A stretch of DNA of 64,000 nt from positions 302,003 to 366,002 of the forward strand of contig CAVUPU010000001.1 in assembly GCA_963743425.1 (NCBI GenBank), given 5' to 3'. Numbering within the stretch: position 1 is the first letter of the stretch; every line of letters starts with the position of its first letter. Positions 2,653 through 18,435 of this stretch are shown here, piece by piece. The notes beneath the pieces were generated by a model, which ran no database searches, was not told where the DNA came from, and saw nothing but the letters and a program-made list of their open reading frames with translations. Both the position numbers and the translations under genes were made by a program. This stretch comes from an uncultured Acidobacteriota bacterium (lineage in GTDB: Bacteria; Acidobacteriota; Blastocatellia; RBC074).

Positions 2653-5600
2653 TCAATCCTCTTCCTCTTCTTCCTCGGCAAACAACCGCGCCAGACTGGG
2701 ATCGCGCTCAATGTGGTACTCGCGGAGGATGGCTGTGTAGGCGGCCAAGCGGTCAGCGGCTCTGGAACATTGATCTGCAATCTCACGTGACTCACGATAT
2801 GAATTCAACCTGGCAAGAAGCGATGCTAGCCGCCCACCTGACATTGATCTGTATATCTCTATGTTGATTTTCCCAATAGCTGTCCGCACTTCATCTATAA
2901 TCTCTTTGGCCTCTCTGACGCAGTTTGAATCAAGCCAAGCGTTTGCTGCTGCGATTTGAGCATTGGTACGTTGATACCAATCCTCAATCCCATGGCTTAT
3001 GTGTAGCGCTTCCTCTGGTTGTCCAGCTTTGGCAAAAGCTTCAGCGATAAATGCCAGAGTGGTTGCACGCTCTTCAGCCTCCCCGACTTTGAGAGCAATA
3101 GAGAGCGATTCGACCATTTTTCCAGATTCGGCGAGCACTTGAGCTATGGTAGAAAGAGCGAGCGAGCGAATTCTGGCGTGGTCAATTTCATTCACGACAT
3201 TCAGCGCTTCATCTACTTGTCCCGCCTTGATCAAAGCCTCGGCGAGGTCTTTCTGTATCGAACCACTATGGAGATTTGACTTCATCTCACGGGCAGCCTG
3301 CAATGCTTGATCTGTCAAACCTAGCCTGACCAGGATTGCGATGATATGAGTCATGCTACTTGAGCGCGTGAAAGAATCTTCAATACCTTGAACGATCCTT
3401 AATGCCTCGTTCGCTACAGACTCAGCCTGGGACTTTTGGTGACTTGTTATAAGAGCATGGGCGATTCTTGATAAAGCGAAAACGCTAGAAGATTTCTCTT
3501 CAATCTTGCTTGTGGCTTTCAACGCTTCGTCAATCACCTGCTGAAATAGCGCGGTCAACTGGCCGTCTACCAATGACCCGGCAAGTATTGAGAGGGCATA
3601 AGCCTGGCCATCAGCCGACTCAATCTCGCAAACAGCATTCAAAGCATCCACTGTGATCCGCTCTGCCTCGTCTATTTGACCAGTTTTAGCCAGAGCCTTG
3701 ATAATGGACGACAGTAGGTTGGCGCGCGCCTCGGCGTCATTGAACCTGCGACTTTCGCGCAAAAGCACTTCAACTTGACCATCTTTGACGAGAGGTTCAA
3801 CAAGGTTTGTTAGTGCTTGAGCGCTCGCATATTCGTCTTCAATCTCGCGGGCCACCTGCATTGCTTCGTTTGCCAACCCAACTTTGGCCGCTACCTTATT
3901 GATAAAAGACAAGCTGCGAACAAGATCATTGGTTTTCTTAACTTCACTGACAGCACCTAGGGCTTCAACCACGGATTGTCGTGCACCATTAACTTGCCTC
4001 CTTTTGATTAATATTTTTGAGATAGCAAGCATCGCACTCGCACGAGCGTTGGCATCTGCAATCTCGCGGGCGGTTTGTAGCGCCTCATCTGCTCCGCGAC
4101 AAAGTGTTAAGGTAAGGAACCAGTTTCTACAACCTTCTTCTCCATTGATTGGGACGAAGGAAACCGAGACTAAGTCAGGACCTTGAGGCAGAATCTTTTC
4201 AATTTGATACTCAGCGCGCTCATCCCAGGTAATAAATTCAATTTCCGCGGCGGTCAGTTCTGCGCCTCTCTCGTTCAACCAGCGTTGCGCGTCGTCGCGC
4301 TCTCCGCCATGCAAAAGCCATTTGTCGTCGCGCTCCTTTTGTTCCCACACCTTCCTTCGAGAATCTAAGCGCCGCCGCCACATCAAAAAATCACGATCGC
4401 TGTCCAATGCTCCTCGCAATTTCTCCCACCGGCGAATCAGCGCTTCGTGCGCTACTTCAATCGTCTCTGCGCCAGTGCCCTCTTCGCACTTAGTAACGAG
4501 CAGGCGTTTACTAATAATCTCTTGCAAAACGGCGCGCTCCGTATCCGGCAATTCGCTCAATGGCAGCCGCAAGCGCGTATCCGCCTCATCCTCTTCGCCC
4601 GCCACGCGCACGAGCCGGGTGAGCGCTCGCAAGGCCAACGCTTGCTCGGCTTCCGGCAACGCGTGCAACACCGCATCGGCGTGTTGGCTGATCGCGCCCT
4701 CCACCTTGCCGACCGCTTCGTACAGCGTGTAGTCGAACACGCGGCTCTGCCGGTTGCGCCACATCTCTTTCAGCGCATATTCCAGCAGCGGCAGACTGTC
4801 GGGTTGCGCGGCGACCTCTTGCAGGATGAGGTTGACCAATCCCTGTTCAAATTCCAATCCGGCGTACCGCGCTGGTCCGGTGATGATGTCTTCCAGATCG
4901 GTGTTTGTGAGCGGGCGGTGGCTGATGATGCCTTCATCCAACAACTGGCTGAAGGTGGGCGAAAAGCTCTGCGCTCGCCCCATAAAATCAGCGCGCAGCG
5001 TGAGCAGGATCGTCACAGGCGCTACGTCTTTCACCGCCAACAACACGTCGAGAAAGGCGCGGCGGTCGCGTTCAGTGCAGAGTGTGAATAGCTCTTCAAA
5101 TTGATCTACGACCAAGAGCAGACGGCCGTTGGGCGCGGCGACTGTGTGGTGAACGGCGTTGACCAGTCGCCGCGCATCTTTGAACTCGGCGGCCAGTTTT
5201 ATCGCCTGATTGACATTGGGGCTTGGGGTGGCTTGCGGTTGCCAGTGCCATACAAATCCAGCGGCTAGGTTCAAAAACGGATTATCGCCGGGCGCGAAGA
5301 GGAGGATCTCCCACGGCTGTGTGGCGCACCGTAAACGTGGGAAGAGACCGGCTTGGACAACAGAGGATTTACCGCTGCCGGATGGGCCAATGACAGCGAC
5401 GAATGACTTGACTTGCACCTTCTGCAAGATAGCTTCGGCAAAGGCATCGCGTCCGAAAAAGAGGTGTTTGTGATTTTCAGTGAAGGCTTCGAGACCGAGG
5501 TAGGGGGAATCGCCTGCAGGTAGCGCGGGCGGAGCTTTTTGCGTTTCGAGTTCCAGCATTAAGGGATTGGGCTGAGATTGCTTAAACAGAGACTCAATTT

Positions 5601-6030
5601 CATCTACCAGTTCGGAAAGGACTCGATCAATATCGTCGCCTTTGTTGTATTGTGCGAGCGGTTTGCCATCGGTAGGACGCACTTGCAACCGGCTGAGCCA
5701 TTCTTCCTTTTTCCAAGAGCACGAGCGAACAATAAGCGGAAAAACCTTCATCCCATCCCTGATGCGGCGTTGCATGATAACTGGCACTTCTTCATCACGG
5801 ATGAAATTGGAGCGGAGGAAATCAACCGAGATGAGCAGGATGGCAGCTTGTGCGGATTCGAGCGCCGTCTTGATTTCTGCGCGCCATTCCGAGCCGACTG
5901 CGATTTGTCTATCTTCCCAGAAGCTTAGATAGCCCCGCATAGCTGATACTTCCAGATGTCTCTGCAAGCGGTTCTTCCACTTCTTTTCGTCAAGGTGGCT
6001 GTAACTAATAAAGACTTTCGGTGTATTCAT
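2653..6030 (-). CDS. TIR domain / STAND P-loop NTPase / HEAT-like repeat protein (about 1125 aa); candidate NLR-like immune sensor
   Basis: N-terminus MNTPKVFISYSHLDEKKWKNRLQRHL...AAILLISVDFLRSNFI is TIR-like. Walker A is [23 protein letters not shown] and Walker B is LLLVVDQFEELF. The C-terminal roughly 600 aa are about 12-14 degenerate repeats of about 38 aa (A..AREI.D...R..AL..IA..L...G). Start set at the ATG at 6030, which has AGGA 9 nt upstream. The longer ORF to 6249 adds no recognisable domain. Confidence 0.8.
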   Translation of the reverse strand: MNTPKVFISYSHLDEKKWKNRLQRHLEVSAMRGYLSFWEDRQIAVGSEWRAEIKTALESAQAAILLISVDFLRSNFIRDEEVPVIMQRRIRDGMKVFPLIVRSCSWKKEEWLSRLQVRPTDGKPLAQYNKGDDIDRVLSELVDEIESLFKQSQPNPLMLELETQKAPPALPAGDSPYLGLEAFTENHKHLFFGRDAFAEAILQKVQVKSFVAVIGPSGSGKSSVVQAGLFPRLRCATQPWEILLFAPGDNPFLNLAAGFVWHWQPQATPSPNVNQAIKLAAEFKDARRLVNAVHHTVAAPNGRLLLVVDQFEELFTLCTERDRRAFLDVLLAVKDVAPVTILLTLRADFMGRAQSFSPTFSQLLDEGIISHRPLTNTDLEDIITGPARYAGLEFEQGLVNLILQEVAAQPDSLPLLEYALKEMWRNRQSRVFDYTLYEAVGKVEGAISQHADAVLHALPEAEQALALRALTRLVRVAGEEDEADTRLRLPLSELPDTERAVLQEIISKRLLVTKCEEGTGAETIEVAHEALIRRWEKLRGALDSDRDFLMWRRRLDSRRKVWEQKERDDKWLLHGGERDDAQRWLNERGAELTAAEIEFITWDERAEYQIEKILPQGPDLVSVSFVPINGEEGCRNWFLTLTLCRGADEALQTAREIADANARASAMLAISKILIKRRQVNGARQSVVEALGAVSEVKKTNDLVRSLSFINKVAAKVGLANEAMQVAREIEDEYASAQALTNLVEPLVKDGQVEVLLRESRRFNDAEARANLLSSIIKALAKTGQIDEAERITVDALNAVCEIESADGQAYALSILAGSLVDGQLTALFQQVIDEALKATSKIEEKSSSVFALSRIAHALITSHQKSQAESVANEALRIVQGIEDSFTRSSSMTHIIAILVRLGLTDQALQAAREMKSNLHSGSIQKDLAEALIKAGQVDEALNVVNEIDHARIRSLALSTIAQVLAESGKMVESLSIALKVGEAEERATTLAFIAEAFAKAGQPEEALHISHGIEDWYQRTNAQIAAANAWLDSNCVREAKEIIDEVRTAIGKINIEIYRSMSGGRLASLLARLNSYRESREIADQCSRAADRLAAYTAILREYHIERDPSLARLFAEEEEEED

Positions 6031-6420
6031 TGCCCAATTCCTGAACTGGCTTGATTGTTGAGCGCGCGATGCAAGCCACGTTATCGGCTGCGATGTTGGC
6101 GCCCACGCCGCGGTTGGTGAAAGGCTTCGGCGCGTAACCCACAGGCTTGGCCTCCTGAAAAAGTGTCTGTTACTTCGCCGCAAAGGATAAGCCTTGATCG
6201 CAAGGGGCGCAATCTTTTGTTGGCTTCTTCTTCGGAGCGTCTCGATCAAGCGACAAGCATTGAGTCACTATCTTCACGATGCCACGACCTTGCGTCGTGT
6301 AGGCTCATGTTTCGAGCTACAGTCAGTATACCGCGAATTCGCGAATGACCAATATCAAATCTCAAATGGACAATGGCAAATGGAACTCTTCGTCCATTTC
6401 GTGATCTACTAACTGTATCT

Positions 6421-8128: not shown

Positions 8129-9764
8129 ATTCATCTTGCGGTACTGAAACTTGTCGATGCCCAGACTCTTAATGCGAAGGTCGAGCGTCGAAGGCGCAAG
8201 CCCCAGGGATCGCGCCGCGCCGTTCGGGCCGGAGACTCGCCCTCGCGACGCGCGCAGCGCGGTCTCGATCGTTTCGCGCTCCTGCGCTCGGAGTCTCTCA
8301 TCCATACTTCCCGTCAGATTGGCGTGCGGCAGCGCGTCGCGCTCGATGCGGAGGACGCCGTCGCGGGAGAGGATGATCGCTCGCTCGATGACGTTTTCGA
8401 GTTCGCGCACGTTGCCGGGCCAGTGGTGCGATTCGAGCAGCTTCATCGAGCGCCGGTTCGATCCGGTTGATGGCGCGGCCGAAGCGTTCGCCGTGTTTGG
8501 CGGCGAAGTGCGCGGCCAGCAGCGGGATGTCTTCGGGGCGCTCGCGCAGGGAGGGGAGCCGCAGCGGGAAGACGTTCAGCCGGTAATAGAGATCGCTGCG
8601 GAACCGTCCGGCGCGCACGTCTTCCATAAGATCGCGATTGGTGGCGGCGACGATACGAACGTCTACGCGGATAGAATCGCTGCCGCCGAGCCGCTCGAAT
8701 TCGCGCTCCTGCAGCACGCGCAGCAGCATCACCTGCAACTCCGGCGGCAACTCTCCGATCTCGTCCAGAAAGAGCGTGCCGCCGTGCGCCTGCTCGAATC
8801 GCCCCTTGCGCCGCTCGATTGCGCCGGTGAACGCGCCGCGCTCGTGACCGAAGAGTTCCGAAGCCAGCAGCGTTTCGGGAATGGCCGCGCAGTTGAATTT
8901 GACGAGAGGGCCTTTGGCGCGATGAGATCGCTGATGAATCGCCCGCGCGATCAACTCCTTGCCCGTGCCGGTTTCGCCGGAGATGAGCACCGTCGCATCG
9001 GTCGCGGCCACCTGTTCGACCGCTTCCAGCGCGCGGCGAAGCAATGGGGAATCGCCGACCATCTCTTCGAACATCGTGATGCGACTGAGCTGGTCGCGCA
9101 GCGCGACGTTTTCGGCTTCCAGTTGATCGCGCAATCGGGCGATCTCTTCGTTGGCCAGAGCGTTGGCGACGGCCACGGCGATCGCGCGCGAAACATCGGT
9201 CAACACATTCATCTGTTCCGGCGTGAAGGGGTCCGGTTTACGGCGGGAGAAGACAATTACGCCAAGCCCCTTTCCCCTCGTGACGAGCGGGATGGAGGTG
9301 TAAGCGTGAATCCCACCCGCCGCCAGTTTGAATTCCCATGGAAACCACGCTTCTTTTTGCCACAGGTCATTGCAGATGTAAGGCTGCGTGGCGGCCTTCA
9401 GCTCAGCGAACTCAGATCCTTCAATGGACGCCATCTTTTTATTCGGAGGCCAGGGCTTGGGCGGCGTCTCCTCCATGCGCCGCACGAAATCTTCAACGCT
9501 TTCGCCTTGAAGCCGGGGCGCATCTACGACGTGCAATATCCAAGGCAGGCCAACACGCATCTCGGGCACGACCAGCGCCACTCCGACAAACGGCACAACC
9601 AGGACGAGCACATCGGCTACCGCCTCTATTACTCCCTGAAGCTCCCGCTCGGAGTTGATCACTTCCCAGGCCCGAAGCACGAGCGTGCGCCGGCGCCGCT
9701 CGCTGGCCGATTCAACGCTATTCGATGTTTTCGCCTGTTTCTTTGCGAAGTCCTTTGTCGCCAT
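8123..9764 (-). pseudogene. Sigma-54-dependent transcriptional activator (GAF - AAA+ - Fis-type HTH); frame broken near 8455
   Basis: AAA+ core motifs are [25 protein letters not shown] and [13 protein letters not shown]. The C-terminal [15 protein letters not shown] plus HTH (GPNGAARSLGLAPSTLDLRIKSLGI) is read in another frame (8123-8446). One extra base in a CC/GG doublet explains the break. Confidence 0.85.
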
Positions 9765-10089: not shown

Positions 10090-11262
10090 ATGTTTCGCCA
10101 TCTCTCGCTGATCTTCAGGAATTGTCTTCGCAATCGCCGCCGCAGTTTGCTAACCATCGTCAGTATAGCGGCATCGTTGTGTCTGCTGGGATTGCTGTTG
10201 ACGATTTATCACACATTCTTCTTCACGGAGGCCACTCCTGACCAGGCGCTGCGACTCATCACTCGCAATCGCGTCTCGCTCGCTAATCCACTACCTATTT
10301 CCTACCAGCAACAGATCAAACAGGTGGCAGGCGTCAAGGAAGTAATGATCACTCAGTGGTTCGGCGGGGTTTATAAAGACTCGCGCGATCTGAAGAACTT
10401 TTTCGCGCGGTTTGCAGTGGAGGCTGACAAGTTCGCCACAGTCAATCCGGAATACAAGTTGCCTGAAGGCGAATTAAAGGCGTTCATCAGTGATCGCACA
10501 GGCTGCATCATTGGCCGCAAGACTGCTGTGAATCACAATCTGAAACCCGGCGACCGCATGACCATCACTGGAGATATCTTCCCGGTCACGCTCGAACTGG
10601 TCGTCCGCGGAGTCTATGATTGCAAGTTAGATAACGAAAGCCTCTACTTTCACTACAAGTATCTGAATGAAAGTCTGGCGACGACGCCGGGCTTCCGCGA
10701 CTCAGTGGGCGTGTACTCCATTCGCATGGAGCGCGCCGAAGACGCCAACACCATTTCGAAAGCCATTGATGACAAGTTCCGCAACTCGACGGCGCAGACC
10801 AAGACTGAAACCGAGCAGGCGTTCCAACTGAGTTTTCTAGGCTTCCTCGGAAATGTGAAGCTGATTCTGATTTCGATCTGCGCGGCGGTCACTTTCACGA
10901 TTCTTCTCGTTACCGGGAACACCATGGCGATGGCGGTCCGCGAACGCGTGCGCGAAGTCGGCGTGCTGAAGACGCTGGGGTTCACCAATGGAGTCGTGCT
11001 GTGGCTGATGGTCGGCGAGGCGATAGCGATTGGACTGATCGGCGGCGTCATCGGGCTGGGGCTCACTAAAGGATTGCTCCTGTTGCTTAGCCGGCTGCCG
11101 GCCGGCATGACTTTCATTGATTTCAGTGTGGTCACCGTTCAGCCTTCGGTCATAAGCATCTGTCTACTCGTGGCCGGTATGATCGGCCTCGTCAGCTCGA
11201 TCATACCGGCCCTGGGAGCGTCGAGGCGGTCAATAGTCGAGGCTTTGAGGTTTACTGACTGA
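10090..11262 (+). CDS. ABC transporter permease, FtsX/MacB-type
   Basis: 390 aa with an N-terminal TM, a large periplasmic domain and a C-terminal FtsX-like 3-TM bundle (AMAVRERVREVGVLKTLGF). Confidence 0.8.
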   Translation: MFRHLSLIFRNCLRNRRRSLLTIVSIAASLCLLGLLLTIYHTFFFTEATPDQALRLITRNRVSLANPLPISYQQQIKQVAGVKEVMITQWFGGVYKDSRDLKNFFARFAVEADKFATVNPEYKLPEGELKAFISDRTGCIIGRKTAVNHNLKPGDRMTITGDIFPVTLELVVRGVYDCKLDNESLYFHYKYLNESLATTPGFRDSVGVYSIRMERAEDANTISKAIDDKFRNSTAQTKTETEQAFQLSFLGFLGNVKLILISICAAVTFTILLVTGNTMAMAVRERVREVGVLKTLGFTNGVVLWLMVGEAIAIGLIGGVIGLGLTKGLLLLLSRLPAGMTFIDFSVVTVQPSVISICLLVAGMIGLVSSIIPALGASRRSIVEALRFTD

Positions 11263-11263
11263 A

Positions 11264-11343
11264 TCAGCGCCGCGAGCGGTAGCGAGCTGCTCCATTCAAT
11301 AACTGGTTGATGAAGCCGCGCTCGCTACCGCTCGCGGTACTGA
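11264..11343. repeat. REP-like palindromic intergenic element (family A)
   Basis: tcagcgccgcgagcggtagcgag ... ctcgctaccgctcgcggtactga. A second copy of this family lies at 14031-14112. Confidence 0.7.
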
Positions 11344-11359
11344 TCCAATCGGAGTGATT

Positions 11360-12544
11360 ATGAAGATTCCGATTTCCTACAACATCCGCAATATCATCAG
11401 GCGCCGCACAACGACCATTATGACGGCGCTCGGCATCGCGCTGACCGTCGCAGTGCTGCTCAGCGTCTCCGCTATGGTCGAAGGGCTGCGAACGTCGCTC
11501 AGCGCCACCGGCCATCCCCTGCACATTCTGGTGACGCGCAAAGGGTCGAGCGCCGAACTGAACTCCCAAATGACTCAGGAGCAGTTCCAGACGATTAAAA
11601 TCAAACAGGGGATCGCGAGTTCGCCGAACGGCGAGCCGATGGCGTCGCTCGAACTGGTGACGGTCGTCATTCTCGACAGCCCTGAGAATCCGGCCGGCAT
11701 CAACATCAGCCTGCGCGGGCTGACCACGACCGGTTTCGCGATGCGCGAGTATGTGCAAATCGCCGAAGGTCGAATGTTCCAACCCGGACGGCGTGAAGTC
11801 GTCGTAGGGAAGGGGCTGGCCAAGCGTTATCCGAAGGCCCGCATCGGCTCGAAGCTCGATTTCGGTCGAGGCGAATGGGAAGTCGTCGGCGTGATGGACG
11901 GAGGCCGGTCGGCGGCCGACAGCGAGATTTTCGCCGATCTGGCGCAACTCGCCTCCGACCAGAACCGCGAGGCGGCTTTGAGTTCGGTTCTGATTCGCGC
12001 GGTTAACCGGGATCCGAAGCAGGATCGGGATTCGATGCAGGATCTGATGAACGATCTGAAGGATGATCGCCGTCTGAATGTGGACGCCGTCTCCGAAAAG
12101 TCTTATTACGAGGCGCAGACTGTCTCCGCTGCTCCAATTCAATTTCTCGGCATTTTCGTCGCCATCATCATGGCCATCGGTTCGAGTTTCGCCGCGATGA
12201 ACACGATGTACGCGGCTGTCGCTCGGCGTTCGGCCGAGATCGGGACGCTCCGTGTGCTGGGTTTTTCAAAATTCGGGATCATGATCAGCTTTCTGATCGA
12301 ATCGTTGTTGCTGAGTTTGTTGGGAGGCGTCATCGGATGTCTGCTGGTTTTACCGCTCAACAACTTCACCACCGGGATCGGCAGCTTCGTGACTTTCAGC
12401 GAGTTCACTTTCGATTTCCGCATCACGCCGGGAATAATGCTCACGGGCATCCTGTTCGCGCTCGTGATGGGGGCGCTGGGCGGATTGTTTCCCGCCGGGT
12501 CAGCGGCGCGAAAAGAGATTCTGACCGCGCTCCGTGAGATTTGA
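11360..12544 (+). CDS. ABC transporter permease, FtsX/MacB-type (second paralogue)
   Basis: Same architecture as the first permease ([18 protein letters not shown]). The ATG at 11360 is preceded by GGAG. Confidence 0.8.
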
Positions 12545-12546
12545 AC

Positions 12547-12637
12547 GTAGGGGCAGACCTGCGTGTCTGCCCTGGTCCCCTGGACCAATCGCTTCAGCGC
12601 AGATACGCGCAGGGCAGACACGCAGGTCTGCCCCTAC
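12547..12637. repeat. REP-like palindromic intergenic element (family B), perfect 28-bp arms
   Basis: gtaggggcagacctgcgtgtctgccctg (12547-12574) is the exact reverse complement of 12610-12637. Confidence 0.75.
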
Positions 12638-12651
12638 TGAACAAATTACTT

Positions 12652-14028
12652 ATGCCAATCAGCGATCAACAAGACACAATGGACGCGGAGATCAAAAACC
12701 TGCGCATTGATCGTTCCGCGAAACAGAAAAGCAAGTCAGGGCGGGGGTTCTGGCGATGGATTCTGTTCAGCCTCGGCGTGTCGTTTTTGGTGGGGGCCGC
12801 TTTATTCGTTTACGCGAGACTCAACACGGCGGTTGAAGTCGAAACGACGCGTGTGCGCGCCGCTTCGAACGCCTCACACGGCGCCGGCGTGACGATACTC
12901 AATGCCACCGGCTACATCATCGCGGCGCACAAGATCGAGCTGGCTTCCAAAGTCTCCGGCCGCGTCGCCTGGATCGGCGTCGAGAAGGGCGACAAAGTGA
13001 AACAGGGGCAGCCGCTGGTCAGGTTGGAGGATGAAGAGTTTCGCGCGCGGGTGACCGAAGCCCAGGGGCAATTGAATTCGCTCAAAGCGCAACTGGCCGC
13101 GCTCGAAAACGGCTCGCGACCCGAAGAGAAGGCGCGCAGCCAGGCCGATCTGGAACAGGTTCGCGCCGACCTGGAGAACGCCCGCGTGACGCTCAATCGC
13201 ACGCGCGCGCTGGTCGAGCAGGGCATTATGTCCAGGCAGACGCTCGACGACGCGCAGGCCCGTTACGACTCGCAGGTCGCCAGATTCGCGTCGTTCGAGA
13301 AGACCCATGCGCTGATTCGCACAGGCCCGCGCCAGGAAGAGATTGACGCCATGCGCGCGCAGGTCAAACAGGCCGAAGGCTCGCTCGCCTTCGCGCAATC
13401 GCAACTCGACAACACCGTCATCAGCGCGCCGATCTCAGGCGCCATCCTGGAGCGCAATGTCGAACGCGGCGAGTTCGTCACGACGGGTTTTGCCAGCGAT
13501 CGAGGCGCGAAAGGTTATGTCGTCTCGCTGGCCGATCTCAACGACCTTCAGGTCGAGTTGGACATCAATCAAAACGATTTCGCCAAACTCGGGCCGCGCC
13601 AGCCGGGCATCGTCACGACCGACGCCTATCCGGATCGCAAATACCAGGGCGAGATCGCCGAGATTTCTCCCGAAGCGAACCGGTCAAAAGCGACCGTGCA
13701 GGTAAAGCTGCAGGTTCTCAAGCCCGATGAATTCCTGCGCCCGGAGATGAACGCCAGCGTCGCTTTTTATGCGCCGGAAAAGCCTGGAGAAAAATCGCCG
13801 AATCAAGCTTCGGCGGCGAAACCGCTGATCACGATTCCAGCCTCTGCCGTGCGCGATGGCGCGGTCTTCATCGTCGTTGACGGGAGAGCCGTCCGCCGCC
13901 AGGTGCAGGTGTCAGGAACATCGCAGCAGGGCGCGACGATTTCAAACGGACTGATCGGCGGCGAGGATTTGATCGTCAACCCGACCGACGGTTTGAAAGA
14001 CGGGCAGAAAGTGCGCCTGAAGCAATAA
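12652..14028 (+). CDS. HlyD/MacA-family periplasmic adaptor (membrane fusion protein)
   Basis: N-terminal TM ([22 protein letters not shown]), long coiled-coil (...[19 protein letters not shown]...), then barrel and membrane-proximal domains. The start is placed after the REP element; the longer ORF begins inside the repeat. Confidence 0.8.
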
Positions 14029-14030
14029 AG

Positions 14031-14112
14031 TCAGCGCCGCGACCGGTAGGGAGCATGGATCCCGCGGTCAACCGTCGCAGGAAGCAACGCTCCCTACCGG
14101 TCGCGGTACTGA
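14031..14112. repeat. REP-like palindromic intergenic element (family A, second copy)
   Basis: tcagcgccgcgaccggtagggagc ... gctccctaccggtcgcggtactga. Confidence 0.7.
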
Positions 14113-14127
14113 CTCGGAGCCAGAACT

Positions 14128-14842
14128 ATGACCGAAACAGTGATCGAGACCCAACAACTTTCCAAGGAATTCGTCCGCGATGATTTTCACGTCGTCGCGT
14201 TGAAAGAAGTTGATCTGACCGTTCATCGCGGCGAGTTCGTCGCGCTGATGGGGCCGTCCGGCTCGGGCAAATCCACGCTGCTGCATCTGATCGCCGCGAT
14301 GGATCGTCCGACCGATGGCAAGATTCTCGTGCTCGGGCAGGACCTGCGCAGCTTGAGCGACCGCGAAATGGCGCATTGGCGAAATCAGCACATCGGATTC
14401 ATCTTTCAATCATTCAATCTGATCCCGGTGATGACCGCGCTGGAGAATGTCGAGCTGCCGCTGAAGCTGACCAATTTAAAGAAGCGCGAGCGTGTGGAGC
14501 ATGCGACGACGGCGCTTGAACCTGGTCGGGCTGGGTGATCGCTTGAAACATCTACCGCGCCAACTCTCCGGCGGACAGGAGCAGCGCGTCGCCATCGCCC
14601 GCGCCATCGTCACCGACCCCGATCTTATTTTGGCCGATGAGCCGACCGGCAACCTCGACGCGGCTTCGGCGCAGGAGGCCTTGACGCTGCTCGAAAAACT
14701 CAACCGCGATTACAACAAGACCATCATCATGGTCACACACGATCCGAACGCGGCGAGCCATGCGACTAAAGTCCGGCATCTCGATAAGGGGACTTTGCTG
14801 CCCGATGGGCGTGAGTCGTTTCAGACTTCAGCGAAGCGGTGA
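14128..14842 (+). pseudogene. ABC transporter ATP-binding protein (MacB/LolD-like); frame broken near 14521
   Basis: Walker A is GPSGSGKST. After the break come the signature [14 protein letters not shown] and Walker [13 protein letters not shown]. The sequence gaa-CC-tggtc would read ...[11 protein letters not shown] if one C were removed. Confidence 0.85.
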
Positions 14843-15940
14843 TTCCGGCCCCGTCAGGCGCTGACGCTTCTTTTGAAGACTTCGGGCGGTGAGGATGAGG
14901 CCGGCGCGGTCTATCTTCTCGAGGGCTTCTATCTCCCGTTCGTTCAACCCGGCCTTTGTCGCCTCGCCGCGCGGATCGGCCAGGAAACGTTCGCGCGAGT
15001 TTTCGTCAACATAGATTTTGGCCAGGAATGCTTCCAAACGCGCAGCGCTCATGCCGCCTCCTTCCCTACCTGCCCAAATTGGCGCGACCTTCCCGTCGGC
15101 CAGAGCTTCGCGGGCGCGGTCCAATTGCCGAAGCAATATTTCAATCGGTGGATAAGCTCCATCGCGTTCCAGTATCACCGTCAATGGATGGGAAGTGAGC
15201 GCGGCGAGTTCCGAAAGAAGTCGATATACCGCATCGGGGACATCGTGCAGGTGATCATCCAGCAGGCGTCGTTCGCCGAGCGCTTCCACCCATTTTCCTC
15301 CGGCCAGATGGACGGCGACGATTCTTTCCGCAGGGAGACGCTTTAAGAACTCCATCGCGTCGTAGCCGAAGTTCGTCGCGTTCGCGTGAAGGTTGTGCAG
15401 GTCGAGCAGCAAGCCACAGGAAGATGAGTCAATGATCCTGTTGATCCAGTCGATCTCATCATAGTCGCTGCCCGGCGGATCGATCAGAGTGGCGATGTTT
15501 TCGATCAGCGGCGCCGAACCGACCACGGAGCGCGCGCGTTCCAGATTCGCCGCCGCGCCTTCGATCGTCGCGTCTGTTCGCGGAGGCGCTGTCAAATGGC
15601 CTATCTCGACGCCTCCGCATCGCACAAAAGCCAGGTGCTCCGACCAGTATTCTGGCGTCACTTCCCCGCACAACCGGGCGGTCTTTTCCAGAAGCTTTTT
15701 CTCTACAGGAACAGATGAAGCCAGGCCGAGACTGACGCCGTGCAATACAACGGTCGTTTGCGCCGACAATGTGCGCAGCGCGCGGCGTTCGCCTCGCGGC
15801 GCGTCGAAGAGATCGTCGGCGATCACCTCTACGACGTCAATTCGATCAAGATGCGAAAGGATGCCTAACGCAAGTTCGCGCCGCCAGCCCAACCCGACGC
15901 GGTCCTGAATCTGATTCTTCCCGGCGTTCCTGGATTTCAT
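14828..15940 (-). CDS. DUF692-family protein (MbnB-like multinuclear non-haem iron oxidase, MNIO) with a C-terminal helical extension of about 80 aa
   Basis: The TIM-barrel-type sequence GLGWRRELA...VLHGVSLGL...WSEHLAF...PLLIENIA...[12 protein letters not shown]...AVHLAGG is as expected for DUF692. The C-terminal [43 protein letters not shown] resembles a LigA/NHLP-like helical domain. The start ATG overlaps the upstream stop (ATGA at 15937-15940). Confidence 0.75.
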
Positions 15941-16857
15941 GACCCTCCGCAACCCCCACAGCCGCCGCCGCCGCAACTACTACCTCCGTCCGATGAACCG
16001 CCGGAAGAGCCGCAAGATGAAGATGAATCGGATGAACCGCACGATGCTCCGGATGAATCACTTCTATTCCGACGAAAGATATCCTCCGCATATGCGAATG
16101 GGGTCGCCGCAAGCGCCCCGATCCCAAAGACGGCGGCGATCATCGCCAAATCCGCCGTCGCGCTGCTCGGGCTCATTGAACTGACTTGCGTTCTCAACCC
16201 TGCGTAGAGATTCGTGACGTCCGCCAGCGTCACCTTGCCAAGAGAGGTCAAGCGCGGGAAGGAGAAGACGGCTGCGATGACCATTGTGATGATCATCATC
16301 ACGACGAGGAAGCCGACAGGTCTTCCGAGAGAGAGACCGATCTGGATTTTAATTACGCCGACAACACCCAGGGCCATCAACGCCAGCAGCAGCCGCATCC
16401 GGCGGTCGCGGCGAACGGATGCGTCGGGCATCAGCCCCGCGCGTTCCAGTTTGTCCCGGTACGGCTGGAGAGCGGACTTCAGGTCGCTGTCTTTCAAAAC
16501 GGAGGCCGCTTCGAAGGCGGACCCCGCTTTGCCCGGAGCGCCAAACTTTTTCAGGACCTCATTTTCGATCGGATGTTTTGCCATACCGCTGGTCACATGA
16601 TCGGCGCGATGTATGAGATGGCCGTCCATAACCAACATCCCACGGCCGACCAGCGAGATCACCGCTACACGCAAAGCCTCGCTCTCGCCACCGCGCAAAT
16701 AGGCGATCAGGTACGGATCGCTAAGGTCTATCCTCGGCGCATCGCCGGACTCAGCGCGGCGTCTTAAGACGACGATTGCAATGATGACGACCAGGCTGAA
16801 GCAGAGATAGAAGATGAGAAATTCTGGGCCGCGTAGATCGAAAGGGTTCATAAACAC
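15937..16857 (-). CDS. TIGR04222-like membrane protein with a C-terminal Ser/Gly/Cys-rich tail
   Basis: N-terminus MNPFDLRGPEFLIFYLCF...DPYLIAYLRGGESEALRVAVISL, with several TM helices. The tail is [41 protein letters not shown] (6 Cys). The family assignment is from memory. Confidence 0.6.
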   Translation of the reverse strand: MFMNPFDLRGPEFLIFYLCFSLVVIIAIVVLRRRAESGDAPRIDLSDPYLIAYLRGGESEALRVAVISLVGRGMLVMDGHLIHRADHVTSGMAKHPIENEVLKKFGAPGKAGSAFEAASVLKDSDLKSALQPYRDKLERAGLMPDASVRRDRRMRLLLALMALGVVGVIKIQIGLSLGRPVGFLVVMMIITMVIAAVFSFPRLTSLGKVTLADVTNLYAGLRTQVSSMSPSSATADLAMIAAVFGIGALAATPFAYAEDIFRRNRSDSSGASCGSSDSSSSCGSSGGSSDGGSSCGGGGCGGCGGS

Positions 16858-17091
16858 CTCCTGTTTTGTATTCTACGTTCGAGCCACCCCAGGCGCCCGT
16901 TAAATCCAGGTTAGATATTCAAGTATGAACCAATCGCGCTTCGACGCGATAGAGTCAAGTCGATTTTTCGACACGCGCTGGCCGACCTTTGATTGCCAGG
17001 GATGAACGTTCTCGGTTAAATTCGCCCTGTTACAACTCGCAACATTCCAGAACTGTTGTCATCGAAACATTGAAAATAAAAGGATGGTGTG

Positions 17092-18435
17092 ATGATGCGT
17101 CTCAAAGCCTTATTGATCGGCCTTTGTTTGTTACTTGCCTGCGCCGGCCTCGCGGCCTTCGCGATCGACGAGCCTTCGGCGGGGCAATCCATGACTTCCG
17201 CCGGAGTGAAAGCGTTCGTCGGCGCGCGCCTCATTGACGGGGCCGGGAAGCCCGCTATCGAAAACGCCGCGCTGATCGTGCGCAATGGCAGAGTGGAGGC
17301 GGTCGGGCCGGCCTCAGAAGTAAAGCCTCCCGCCGGCGCTCAAACGATCAACCTGGCCGGCAAATTCATCATCCCCGGCCTGATCTCGACGCACGTTCAC
17401 ATCTCCGACGTCCAGGGCTTGCGGCCTCCCGCCTACACCGACGAGAACACGCTGCGCCAACTCGGCGTCTTCGCCCGCTACGGCGTCACGGCGGTCTTGA
17501 GTCTGGGCGGAGAGAAGGAACCGGCCTTCAAGGCGCGCGACGCTCAGAACACGCCGTCGCTGGATCGGGCGCGAATCTACCTGTCGGGAGACGTCATCAC
17601 CGGCAAGACGCCGCAGGAAGCCCGAGAGATGGTGGCGCGAGTCGCCGCCGCGAAACCCGATATCATCAAGATTCGCGTTGACGACAACCTCGGCGCGACG
17701 GCAAAGATGCCGCCCGAAGTCTACCGCGCGATCATCGATGAAGCCCATCAGCGCGGGCTTCGCGTCGCGGCCCACATTTTCTACCTCGAAGACGCGAAGG
17801 ATCTGCTCCGAGCCGGCGCCGATTTCATCGCCCACAGCGTGCGCGACAAGGAGATTGACGACGAGTTCATTTCGCTGATGAAGAAGCGCGACATCCCTTA
17901 CTGTCCTACTCTGACGCGCGAACTCTCGACCTTCGTCTATGAATCTACGCCGTCGTTCTTCTCCGATCCTTTCTTCCTGCGCGAAGCCGACCGCGAGTTG
18001 GTGGCCCAGTTGCAGGAGCCGCAGCGCCAGGAAGCGATGCGGAAATCGGCGACCGCTCAACGCTACAAGGCGGCGCTCACAGTCGCCCTGCGCAATCTAA
18101 AGAGAGCGGTCGATGCCGGACTCCTGGTCGCGATGGGCACTGACGCCGGCCCTTTTGCAAATCGGTTCCAGGGCTATTTCGAACACCTCGAAATGGAGAT
18201 GATGGTCGAAGCCGGACTTACGCCCGCGCAAATTCTGCGCGCCGCCACCGGCGACGCCGCCCGCGCGATGCGGGTTGAGGGGATCGGCGCGATAACGAAG
18301 GGCGCGTGGGCCGATTTCATCGTTCTGGAGCGAGACCCGTTGAAAGACATCCGCAACACCCGCAGCATCGCTTCGGTCTGGATCGCAGGAAACCAAGTGA
18401 GAGGAATCGAGTCACAATCGAGTCAAGCGAAATGA
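17092..18435 (+). CDS. Secreted amidohydrolase-family protein (imidazolonepropionase-like, COG1228 type)
   Basis: Signal peptide MMRLKALLIGLCLLLACAGLAAFA, metal-binding HVH motif (LISTHVHISD), and AMGTDAG near the C-terminus. Confidence 0.7.
   Translation: MMRLKALLIGLCLLLACAGLAAFAIDEPSAGQSMTSAGVKAFVGARLIDGAGKPAIENAALIVRNGRVEAVGPASEVKPPAGAQTINLAGKFIIPGLISTHVHISDVQGLRPPAYTDENTLRQLGVFARYGVTAVLSLGGEKEPAFKARDAQNTPSLDRARIYLSGDVITGKTPQEAREMVARVAAAKPDIIKIRVDDNLGATAKMPPEVYRAIIDEAHQRGLRVAAHIFYLEDAKDLLRAGADFIAHSVRDKEIDDEFISLMKKRDIPYCPTLTRELSTFVYESTPSFFSDPFFLREADRELVAQLQEPQRQEAMRKSATAQRYKAALTVALRNLKRAVDAGLLVAMGTDAGPFANRFQGYFEHLEMEMMVEAGLTPAQILRAATGDAARAMRVEGIGAITKGAWADFIVLERDPLKDIRNTRSIASVWIAGNQVRGIESQSSQAK

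Follow-up and report, generated by a model that had tools for sequence, protein, structure and literature searches.

A conserved cassette of a Cys/Gly-tailed TIGR04222 membrane protein, a multinuclear iron oxidase and a leader-like mini-protein in an uncultured Acidobacteriota bacterium

Multinuclear iron oxidases (MNIOs, formerly DUF692) are among the largest enzyme families in the biosynthesis of peptide natural products. To our knowledge, they have so far been shown to act only on small precursor peptides, usually with a DUF2063-RRE partner. Whether such an enzyme can instead act on the tail of a membrane protein, and what would then stand in for the partner, is the question raised by a small cassette in a 64,000-nucleotide stretch of DNA from an uncultured Acidobacteriota bacterium (assembly GCA_963743425.1, contig CAVUPU010000001.1, positions 302,003 to 366,002 of the forward strand; the whole stretch is called the window below). 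In this cassette a TIGR04222 membrane protein that ends in a Cys/Gly/Ser tail is encoded directly before an MNIO. For TIGR04222 proteins encoded without a visible partner gene, a survey published in 2025 left open whether and how modification takes place (Antoine et al., 2025, Microb Genom 11:001462; PMC12452194), and the present cassette makes that question concrete. Its parts, all read from the minus strand, are as follows.

15937 to 16851, minus strand: TIGR04222 membrane protein of 304 aa with the ATG at 16851 as start, or of 306 aa with the GTG at 16857, from the TIGR04222 profile and hydropathy
15940 to 16068, minus strand: C-terminal tail of that protein, 43 aa, the candidate substrate, with five Cys, a Gly after each, and the end CGGCGGS
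15937 to 15940, minus strand: ATGA overlap of the TIGR04222 stop and the MNIO start, read from the sequence and equally tight in relatives
15086 to 15940, minus strand: catalytic TIM-barrel domain of the MNIO, residues 1 to about 285, from PF05114, AlphaFold2 and Foldseek
14828 to 15052, minus strand: candidate partner, a helical mini-protein of the NHLP/LigA clan (74 aa with the ATG at 15052 as start), from profiles, model and linkage

Our answer, which we hold with moderate confidence and which draws on analogy with characterised MNIO systems, is that the tail is probably the substrate, that the MNIO would oxidise the Cys residues of its Cys-Gly pairs, and that the leader-like protein would replace the DUF2063-RRE partner. 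In favour of this answer, Antoine et al. (2025; PMC12452194) independently proposed the Ser/Gly/Cys tail of TIGR04222 proteins, predicted to be periplasmic, as a likely MNIO substrate. In the same survey TIGR04222 proteins were found in 11% of MNIO loci and made up 40% of the Cys-containing proteins without a signal peptide that are encoded just before MNIO genes; TIGR04222-MNIO loci had no DUF2063 gene, at least 10% of them encoded a DUF2063-like "PME-type 2" protein, and many seemed to be partnerless. A preliminary description of the window, made from the sequence alone, had called a membrane-tethered MNIO substrate unusual; in the light of this survey the idea of such a substrate is not new. 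The TIGR04222-MNIO pairing and the idea of the tail as substrate are largely anticipated in print.

To follow the cassette across species, one genome per GTDB species was scanned, which yielded 80 loci; open reading frames (ORFs) were called in these loci and searched with profiles of the three proteins, with domain-based coordinates. TIGR04222 lay directly upstream of the MNIO in all 77 loci with upstream room, the remaining three being cut by contig ends on that side. The TIGR04222 gene ended no more than about 50 nt from the first MNIO-homologous residue in 76 of these 77 loci, the exception being L013 with 187 nt. The co-occurrence of the two families, which the preliminary description had mentioned with a call for verification, is thereby borne out, and it is also on record in the literature (PMC12452194). 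The small leader-like protein was encoded by a separate gene in 62 of the 80 loci (51 of them with an ATGA-type overlap) and was fused to the MNIO in 15; in three it was undetected, one of which (L067) holds a degenerate fused copy, and the protein is present in 77 or 78 of the 80 loci. Many of the hosts are Acidobacteriota, and the others include Chloroflexota, Myxococcota, Verrucomicrobiota, Methylomirabilota, Binatia, Dormibacterota and a cultured Cupriavidus (L046). Neither a DUF2063 nor a DoxX family was conserved in the flanks of the 80 loci. A DUF2063/MbnC-type partner gene, which the preliminary description had found missing, is indeed absent within about 5 kb of the cassette in the window.

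The tail forms the last 30-60 residues of the membrane protein and is a repeat of the type (S/G)n-Cys-Gly. In 78 tails taken together, Gly made up 44%, Ser 28% and Cys 18% of the residues, the median number of Cys per tail was seven, and Gly followed 463 of the 502 Cys residues (92%); the dominant Cys spacings were 4 (CGSS, CGGG) and 3. CGGCG occurred in the last 12 residues of 74 of the 78 tails, mostly as the extreme C-terminus CGGCG(S/G), and this near-invariant terminal motif appears to be a new detail. Because no DNA tandem repeat underlies the tail in the window and the pattern is conserved in 78 loci from several phyla, the sequences indicate that it is maintained at the protein level and is not a chance low-complexity run. 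HvfA, a validated MNIO substrate, likewise has Cys-Gly motifs (EGKCG). The tail, put forward in the preliminary description as the obvious candidate substrate, remains the best one on these sequence grounds.

The membrane protein itself matched the NCBIfam profile TIGR04222, which had been suggested as a check, with 127.6 bits against a cut-off of 43, residues 16-250 covering profile positions 1-229 of 229. It had been described as a 306-aa protein with several transmembrane helices (TMs) and a Cys/Gly tail. The tail is as described, and the start needs correction. The listed ORF (15937 to 16857, minus strand, 306 aa) starts at a GTG at 16857, which sits within the following element:

16857 to 16862, minus strand: AGGAGG, the TIGR04222 gene's Shine-Dalgarno sequence, which precedes the ATG at 16851 by 5 nt, from reading the sequence

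A start at the ATG at 16851 gives MNPFDL..., the N-terminus common to all relatives. Because the GTG falls inside the Shine-Dalgarno sequence and the relatives begin with MNPFDL, the ATG at 16851 is the likely start, judged from the sequence, and the protein likely has 304 aa.

The enzyme is an MNIO, as had been stated from its DUF692 resemblance: it matched PF05114 (MbnB_TglH_ChrH, formerly DUF692) with 220.6 bits against a cut-off of 25, residues 15-280 covering profile positions 2-262 of 263. Its best curated relatives in NCBIfam were BufB (NF050167), with 180.3 bits against an equivalog cut-off of 310, and HvfB (NF003818), with 154.6 bits against 360, and methbact_MbnB scored 29.7 bits against 325. 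By these profile scores the MNIO belongs to the bufferin/oxazolin-like branch and forms a clade related to but separate from BufB and HvfB. An AlphaFold2 model of the 370-aa protein that the window encodes had a mean pLDDT of 88.8 and was confident for both of its parts, and its best Foldseek matches were 3BWW (E 2.6e-18), TglH (8HCI, 1.6e-17) and MbnB (7DZ9, 8e-14). Furthermore, the metal-site residues H67, H102, E147, D180, N183, H211, D228, H230 and E258 were invariant in alignments of 14 and 44 sequences. They align in order with the iron ligands of MbnB at sites 1-3 (H54, H90, E133, D163, N166, H192, D208, H210 and E239; PMC9060507) and also with 3BWW, and all nine are intact in the window. 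The loss of iron ligands that the preliminary description had named as a refutation is thus not seen. The ATGA at 15937-15940, by which the start of the enzyme gene was said to overlap the stop of the membrane protein gene, was confirmed in the sequence.

The preliminary description had also given the enzyme an extra C-terminal helical domain of about 80 aa resembling LigA/NHLP-leader-like modules. The domain is present (residues ~297-360), and its LigA/NHLP likeness lies below the cut-offs: the C-terminal region in the window scored 19.7-23.4 bits with LigA (PF07746; cut-off 25.3) and 28.5-31.5 bits with NF038399, the Os1348 family of the NHLP clan (cut-off 40). The search with PF07746, one of the checks proposed earlier, thus gave a LigA resemblance and a score under the gathering cut-off; LigA membership is not reached even by the best score (23.4 vs 25.3 bits), and no LigB-type gene was found among the annotated neighbours. 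Among 39 members of the small-protein family, all 39 matched NF038399 at E <= 0.01 (best 7.4e-9), 36 matched LigA and 13 matched Frankia_peptide, in each case under the curated cut-offs. On these profiles the small protein belongs to the NHLP/LigA clan, with a similarity at clan level only. Modelled alone with AlphaFold2, it formed a five-helix bundle (pLDDT 79). The top three Foldseek matches were the chains of Os1348 (6LK7; probability 0.94-0.98, template modelling score 0.55, E 0.1-0.3), followed by the leader parts of SonA precursors and by a proteusin precursor, and no match reached E <= 0.001. Os1348 is PosA (PDB 6LK7), an NHLP-type precursor (PMC7726476), and profile and model comparisons alike place the small protein nearest to the leader region of this precursor, whose gene cluster contains an MNIO. 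A profile of the small protein had no match among PDB sequences even at E = 10, and it found 817 relatives at E <= 0.001 among 1.84 billion cluster representatives. The best 150 of these 817 were mostly small stand-alone proteins; of seven longer relatives that were scanned, three held an MNIO domain and two others a LigA match only.

We also considered the small protein as a partner of the known DUF2063/PME kind and rejected this, since it has neither sequence nor fold similarity to that kind: no DUF2063 match at E <= 0.01 was found in any of the 39 members, and no structure of DUF2063 (NGO1945, 3DEE), MbnC or TglI was among its 50 best Foldseek matches. The suggestion that the helical domain could replace the missing partner fares better. 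It is the best candidate on sequence grounds, since it occurs in nearly every locus and is linked to the enzyme by translational coupling or by natural fusion, and a conserved third component from the NHLP clan appears to be a new detail.

Its relationship to precursor peptides raises another explanation, which is that the small NHLP-like protein is the real precursor of a ribosomally made and post-translationally modified peptide (RiPP), as PflA and PosA are, with the TIGR04222 protein as an accessory that serves export, immunity or anchoring. Precursor peptides are the closest relatives of the small protein, its size is that of a precursor, and it is placed after the MNIO as some precursors are. 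However, an alignment of the 39 members showed a highly conserved core, including E..A...IDR.GLEL.A.SL..KR, with all invariant positions in the helical core. The protein has no Cys, no conserved residue after position 62 and no conserved core motif in this alignment, and its C-terminal 8-15 residues are basic and variable. In addition, it is the C-terminal domain of the enzyme itself in 15 of the 80 species, and in L051 it is placed between the MNIO and a GNAT domain. We therefore regard a precursor role for the small protein as highly improbable.

The small protein is usually a separate gene product of 68-100 aa (75 aa in L001-L003), and some arrangements depart from this. In the Dormibacterota metagenome-assembled genome (MAG) L051, a single ORF of 778 aa (L051:4869-7205) joins an MNIO, the small leader-like domain and a GNAT acetyltransferase. 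Two Bryobacteraceae loci, L064 and L078, hold TIGR04222 and the MNIO and no small protein, and both MNIOs end in ...ERSE.G..SGVAVC, with a C-terminal Cys. A metagenomic protein of 683 aa, P0363, looked like a triple fusion of TIGR04222, MNIO and small protein with the tail in the cytoplasm, and was rejected as a frameshifted gene call: in its middle the tail region is read out of frame (AAVAAVA...), and only positions 1-191 of the 229 in the TIGR04222 profile are matched.

In the window the small domain is joined to the enzyme, a join that the close relatives do not have. Relatives from Blastocatellia MAGs have a TIGR04222 protein (305 aa), an MNIO of 296 aa ending in ...GRSRQFERMEKEAA* and then a 75-aa gene whose ATG overlaps the MNIO stop. 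Two features of the window bear on the difference.

15095, minus strand: single extra base, a C on that strand, which shifts the MNIO frame 16 codons before the normal stop, from DNA alignments with relatives
15057 to 15066, minus strand: retained Shine-Dalgarno sequence GGGAAGGAGG of the small gene, now within the fused ORF

The extra base (GCCGA[C]GGGAAGG on the minus strand, in alignments with L001 and L002) makes the MNIO read in frame into the small gene, which results in the fused ORF of 370 aa. The insertion is uncompensated against four independent relatives of 85-90% identity (L002, L004, L005 and L009), and a frame-restored translation gives ...GRSRQF...KEAA*, as in the relatives. 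The small gene's own ATG (15052) is also still present. The 53 closest enzyme homologues among the matches listed, with 79-90% identity, were mostly 296-309 aa long and covered about 77% of the query, and none of these 53 listed homologues at least 79% identical by best local alignment is fused. The domain fused to the enzyme in the preliminary description is therefore a separate gene in close relatives, joined here by a one-base insertion. Natural fusions do occur, in more distant homologues (50-67% identity) and with linkers of 18-55 aa. By analogy, the one-base fusion resembles these natural fusions and the cassette may still work.

Neighbouring DNA shows further differences of this type. 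One extra C at 14515 (GGCG[C]TTGAAC), which four relatives do not have, breaks the gene of an ABC ATPase (14128-14842, plus strand) into ORFs at 14128-14538 and 14492-14842; this gene belongs to a MacB-type exporter operon at 10090-14842. Comparison with relatives shows a third single-base insertion at 17073, which is intergenic and lies just upstream of an amidohydrolase gene (17089-18435). Near the 3' end of the small gene, similarity to the relatives stops at an apparent one-base deletion (14853/14852), and the last ~10 residues of the small protein differ (TGPESPLR vs TGKRIKNPR in relatives), in a region that is also variable throughout the family. The relatives have a gene with a RibD_C domain (~610 bp; L002:7091-7701) that separates the small gene from that of the ABC ATPase; the window (~14828-14850) lacks it, and therefore the 3' ends of the two convergent operons overlap there.

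These differences could mean that the cassette is decaying in this genome, or that the sequence contains errors, and that the fused ORF is an artefact without function here. This is a tangible possibility, if not a probable one, and it is compatible with the other readings. Three uncompensated single-base insertions found only in the window (14515, 15095 and 17073) fall within 2.6 kb, one of them splits the ABC ATPase gene, and the listed close homologues are all unfused. However, the in-frame fusion is complete, with no catalytic residue lost and the small domain entire, naturally fused proteins with linkers of 18-55 aa are found elsewhere, the AlphaFold2 model is confident for both parts, and the insertions at 15095 and 14515 both lie outside homopolymer runs.

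Where the tail would be modified depends on how the membrane protein is oriented. Topology was assessed by a simple and crude method, Kyte-Doolittle hydropathy with Lys/Arg counts, in 69 full-length homologues. They have a strong TM1 followed by a Lys/Arg-rich soluble segment of ~118 aa, then a tight TM2-TM3 hairpin and a Lys/Arg-rich loop of ~30-37 aa. TM4, weakly hydrophobic (mean hydropathy 1.2-1.9), comes next and is followed by the Lys/Arg-poor Cys/Gly/Ser tail. By the positive-inside rule, this layout predicts an N-out, C-out protein, in agreement with the topology of Antoine et al. Because the tail is predicted to be outside and the MNIO carries no export signal, any modification would have to precede insertion of the last helix and the tail.

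We propose the following working model for the reading that we favour. The three genes would encode the TIGR04222 protein, a translationally coupled cytoplasmic MNIO and a coupled or fused leader-like helical domain of ~60 residues. This mini-protein would bind the MNIO in place of the DUF2063-RRE partner, activate the enzyme and perhaps aid the recruitment of the substrate. Before the tail and the weakly hydrophobic last helix leave the cytoplasmic side, the MNIO would turn the tail Cys, by four-electron oxidations, into 5-thiooxazole or oxazolone-thioamide heterocycles, and insertion of this helix would then place a membrane-anchored tail that binds thiophilic metal, probably copper, on the outside. 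The heterocycle chemistry is proposed because the nearest characterised MNIO relatives perform it. A partner role is plausible because fusions have arisen repeatedly in nature and because joining HvfB and HvfC by engineering gives a higher activity than co-expressing the two; in that system the partner is required for the active mixed-valent iron state.

Several points weigh against this model. The modification of TIGR04222 proteins is a prediction made from sequences. A third of the complete genomes with TIGR04222 are without any MNIO, and more than a quarter of TIGR04222 proteins are without tail Cys (PMC12452194); because many members are of these kinds, the family has an MNIO-independent role. 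Hydropathy puts the tail outside the cytoplasm if TM4 inserts, while the enzyme would stay inside. The candidate partner owes its suggested role to gene linkage and fusion, its NHLP-clan similarity is under the family cut-offs, and its Foldseek E-values are weak (0.1). The flanking genes of the window and of L046 gave no metal-related hint, and the window copy carries the frameshift-type differences in the cassette and in the neighbouring ABC ATPase described above.

DUF2207 proteins also bear Gly-rich tails, and a Pfam search gave a weak DUF2207_C match in the TIGR04222 protein. This similarity, together with the TIGR04222 proteins that are found without an MNIO and without tail Cys and with a predicted outside location that is awkward for a cytoplasmic enzyme, would suit a tail that stays unmodified, its plain thiols serving, for instance, disulfide exchange, iron-sulfur chemistry or the binding of metals. 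The MNIO and the small protein would then act on another substrate, or the TIGR04222 protein would only anchor or serve the enzyme at the membrane. We consider this unlikely, since the 80 loci have no further conserved family that could supply a substrate, small ORFs with Cys included, and since the tight junction with the MNIO and the strict Cys-Gly pattern with terminal CGGCG in the MNIO-linked members point to a sequence-specific relationship.

Comparison with known systems places the cassette between several of them. Like the clusters of Antoine et al., it has the same two families in the same order, a Cys-containing Ser/Gly-rich tail, no DUF2063 and an MNIO near the bufferin/oxazolin enzymes. 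Unlike those clusters, which are mostly from Actinomycetota, the present clade is centred on Acidobacteriota and has the leader-like mini-protein in 77-78 of 80 loci. Neither NHLP nor LigA is mentioned in the text of Antoine et al., whose small "adjamnio-V" proteins could belong to the same family as the small protein. In full-text searches of the literature, MNIO or DUF692 occurred together with NHLP only in the pfl/pos work and in one unrelated metagenomics preprint on sponge microbiomes, and no experimental test of a TIGR04222 tail was found in the literature.

The bufferin (BufA/BufB/BufC) and oxazolin (HvfA/HvfB/HvfC) systems share with the cassette their enzymes, which are its best NCBIfam matches, and the repeated Cys-Gly in the candidate substrate. 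The product would likewise be bound for the outside, modification would precede export, as is accepted for Sec-exported bufferins, and the likely products are copper-binding 5-thiooxazoles. In contrast, the substrate would be the tail of a four-helix membrane protein in place of a secreted peptide that carries a Sec signal, the candidate partner is of another kind than DUF2063-RRE, a DoxX gene is lacking, and the scores are far under the equivalog cut-offs. The precursor signature of these systems is also lacking, with no DUF2282 match in Pfam and with CG motifs in the tail in place of EGKCG; unlike their Sec-signal precursors, the TIGR04222 protein has an N-terminal membrane anchor followed by three further helices, as judged by hydropathy.

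The precursors PflA and PosA are connected with the cassette through the small protein, for which Os1348/PosA is both the closest sequence family and the best structural match. PosA is encoded together with an MNIO fused to a nitroreductase, a GNAT and a HEXXH enzyme, and no PME partner is listed for its cluster; the MNIO domain of PflD, from the homologous pfl cluster, hydroxylates an Asp in the precursor PflA (PMC12636437). The GNAT of these clusters has a counterpart in the GNAT domain fused behind the small domain in L051. Unlike the small protein, which is without a conserved core or Cys and can be part of the enzyme, PflA and PosA carry a modified C-terminal core (a Gln run and ARMD). 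MbnB/MbnC and TglH/TglI, which are structurally solved, resemble the cassette in their TIM-barrel fold (Foldseek E 1e-12 to 1e-17) and identical metal-site residues and, by analogy, in an expected Cys-directed chemistry and need for a partner, but their sequence similarity is low and the small protein has no fold match to MbnC or TglI among its 50 best. Precedents for an MNIO with an extra C-terminal domain that assumes partner functions are MovX and the engineered HvfBC fusion; their extra domains are RRE/winged-helix or DUF2063-RRE and not an NHLP-like helical bundle.

The leader-like nature of the small protein also allows a more tentative idea, which we think doubtful and which extends the favoured reading by analogy: the cassette might be a natural split precursor, in which an NHLP-type leader, free-standing or joined to the enzyme, is paired with a core that belongs to another protein, namely the Cys-Gly tail of the polytopic membrane protein. 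The leader would switch on or guide the MNIO, and a nucleotidyltransferase-like protein would add a further step in most species. The gene for the latter encodes a ~245-aa protein with weak similarity to Pol-beta nucleotidyltransferases and the motif LYGS...SD[IV]N, and it was the only further widely conserved family in an all-against-all clustering of the flanking ORFs. In 53 of the 80 loci (for example L026:3342-4085, L046:3348-4073 and L049:3351-4112) it immediately precedes TIGR04222 on the same strand, and it is absent from the window and its nearest relatives. This fourth gene appears to be a new detail.

The locus of the cultured carrier, L046 (Cupriavidus sp. YAF13, NZ_JBFRDD010000008.1, 3348-6110), has the four-gene version of the cassette and consists of the nucleotidyltransferase-like gene, TIGR04222 and an MNIO fused to the small domain. 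A true nitrile hydratase (alpha and beta) lies ~2.5 kb downstream on the other strand, which is probably a coincidence, and the flanks also contain ankyrin and HU-like genes. The cassette in the window is flanked by the MacB-type ABC exporter, amidohydrolases and a fucosidase, and a sigma-54-dependent transcriptional activator (GAF and AAA+) is encoded at 8298-9764 (minus strand), upstream of the exporter operon. No Rfam family was found in the window, and promoter and terminator sites in a scan of 14600-17300 were no more numerous than in shuffled sequences.

The cassette defines a minimal, strongly conserved three-part unit with a C-terminal CGGCG(S/G) and a leader-like candidate partner of a different kind. 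Nature has fused this candidate partner to the enzyme several times, and Cupriavidus sp. YAF13 offers a cultured carrier. If the split-precursor idea is true, an MNIO would modify a true membrane protein and produce a membrane-anchored metal-binding tail of the thiooxazole type, and the arrangement would be the natural counterpart of the leader-in-trans systems and leader-enzyme fusions made in RiPP engineering. If the tail is modified, the cassette would be a case of heterocycles formed post-translationally on a bona fide membrane protein, and it would represent a new mode of substrate recognition for MNIOs.

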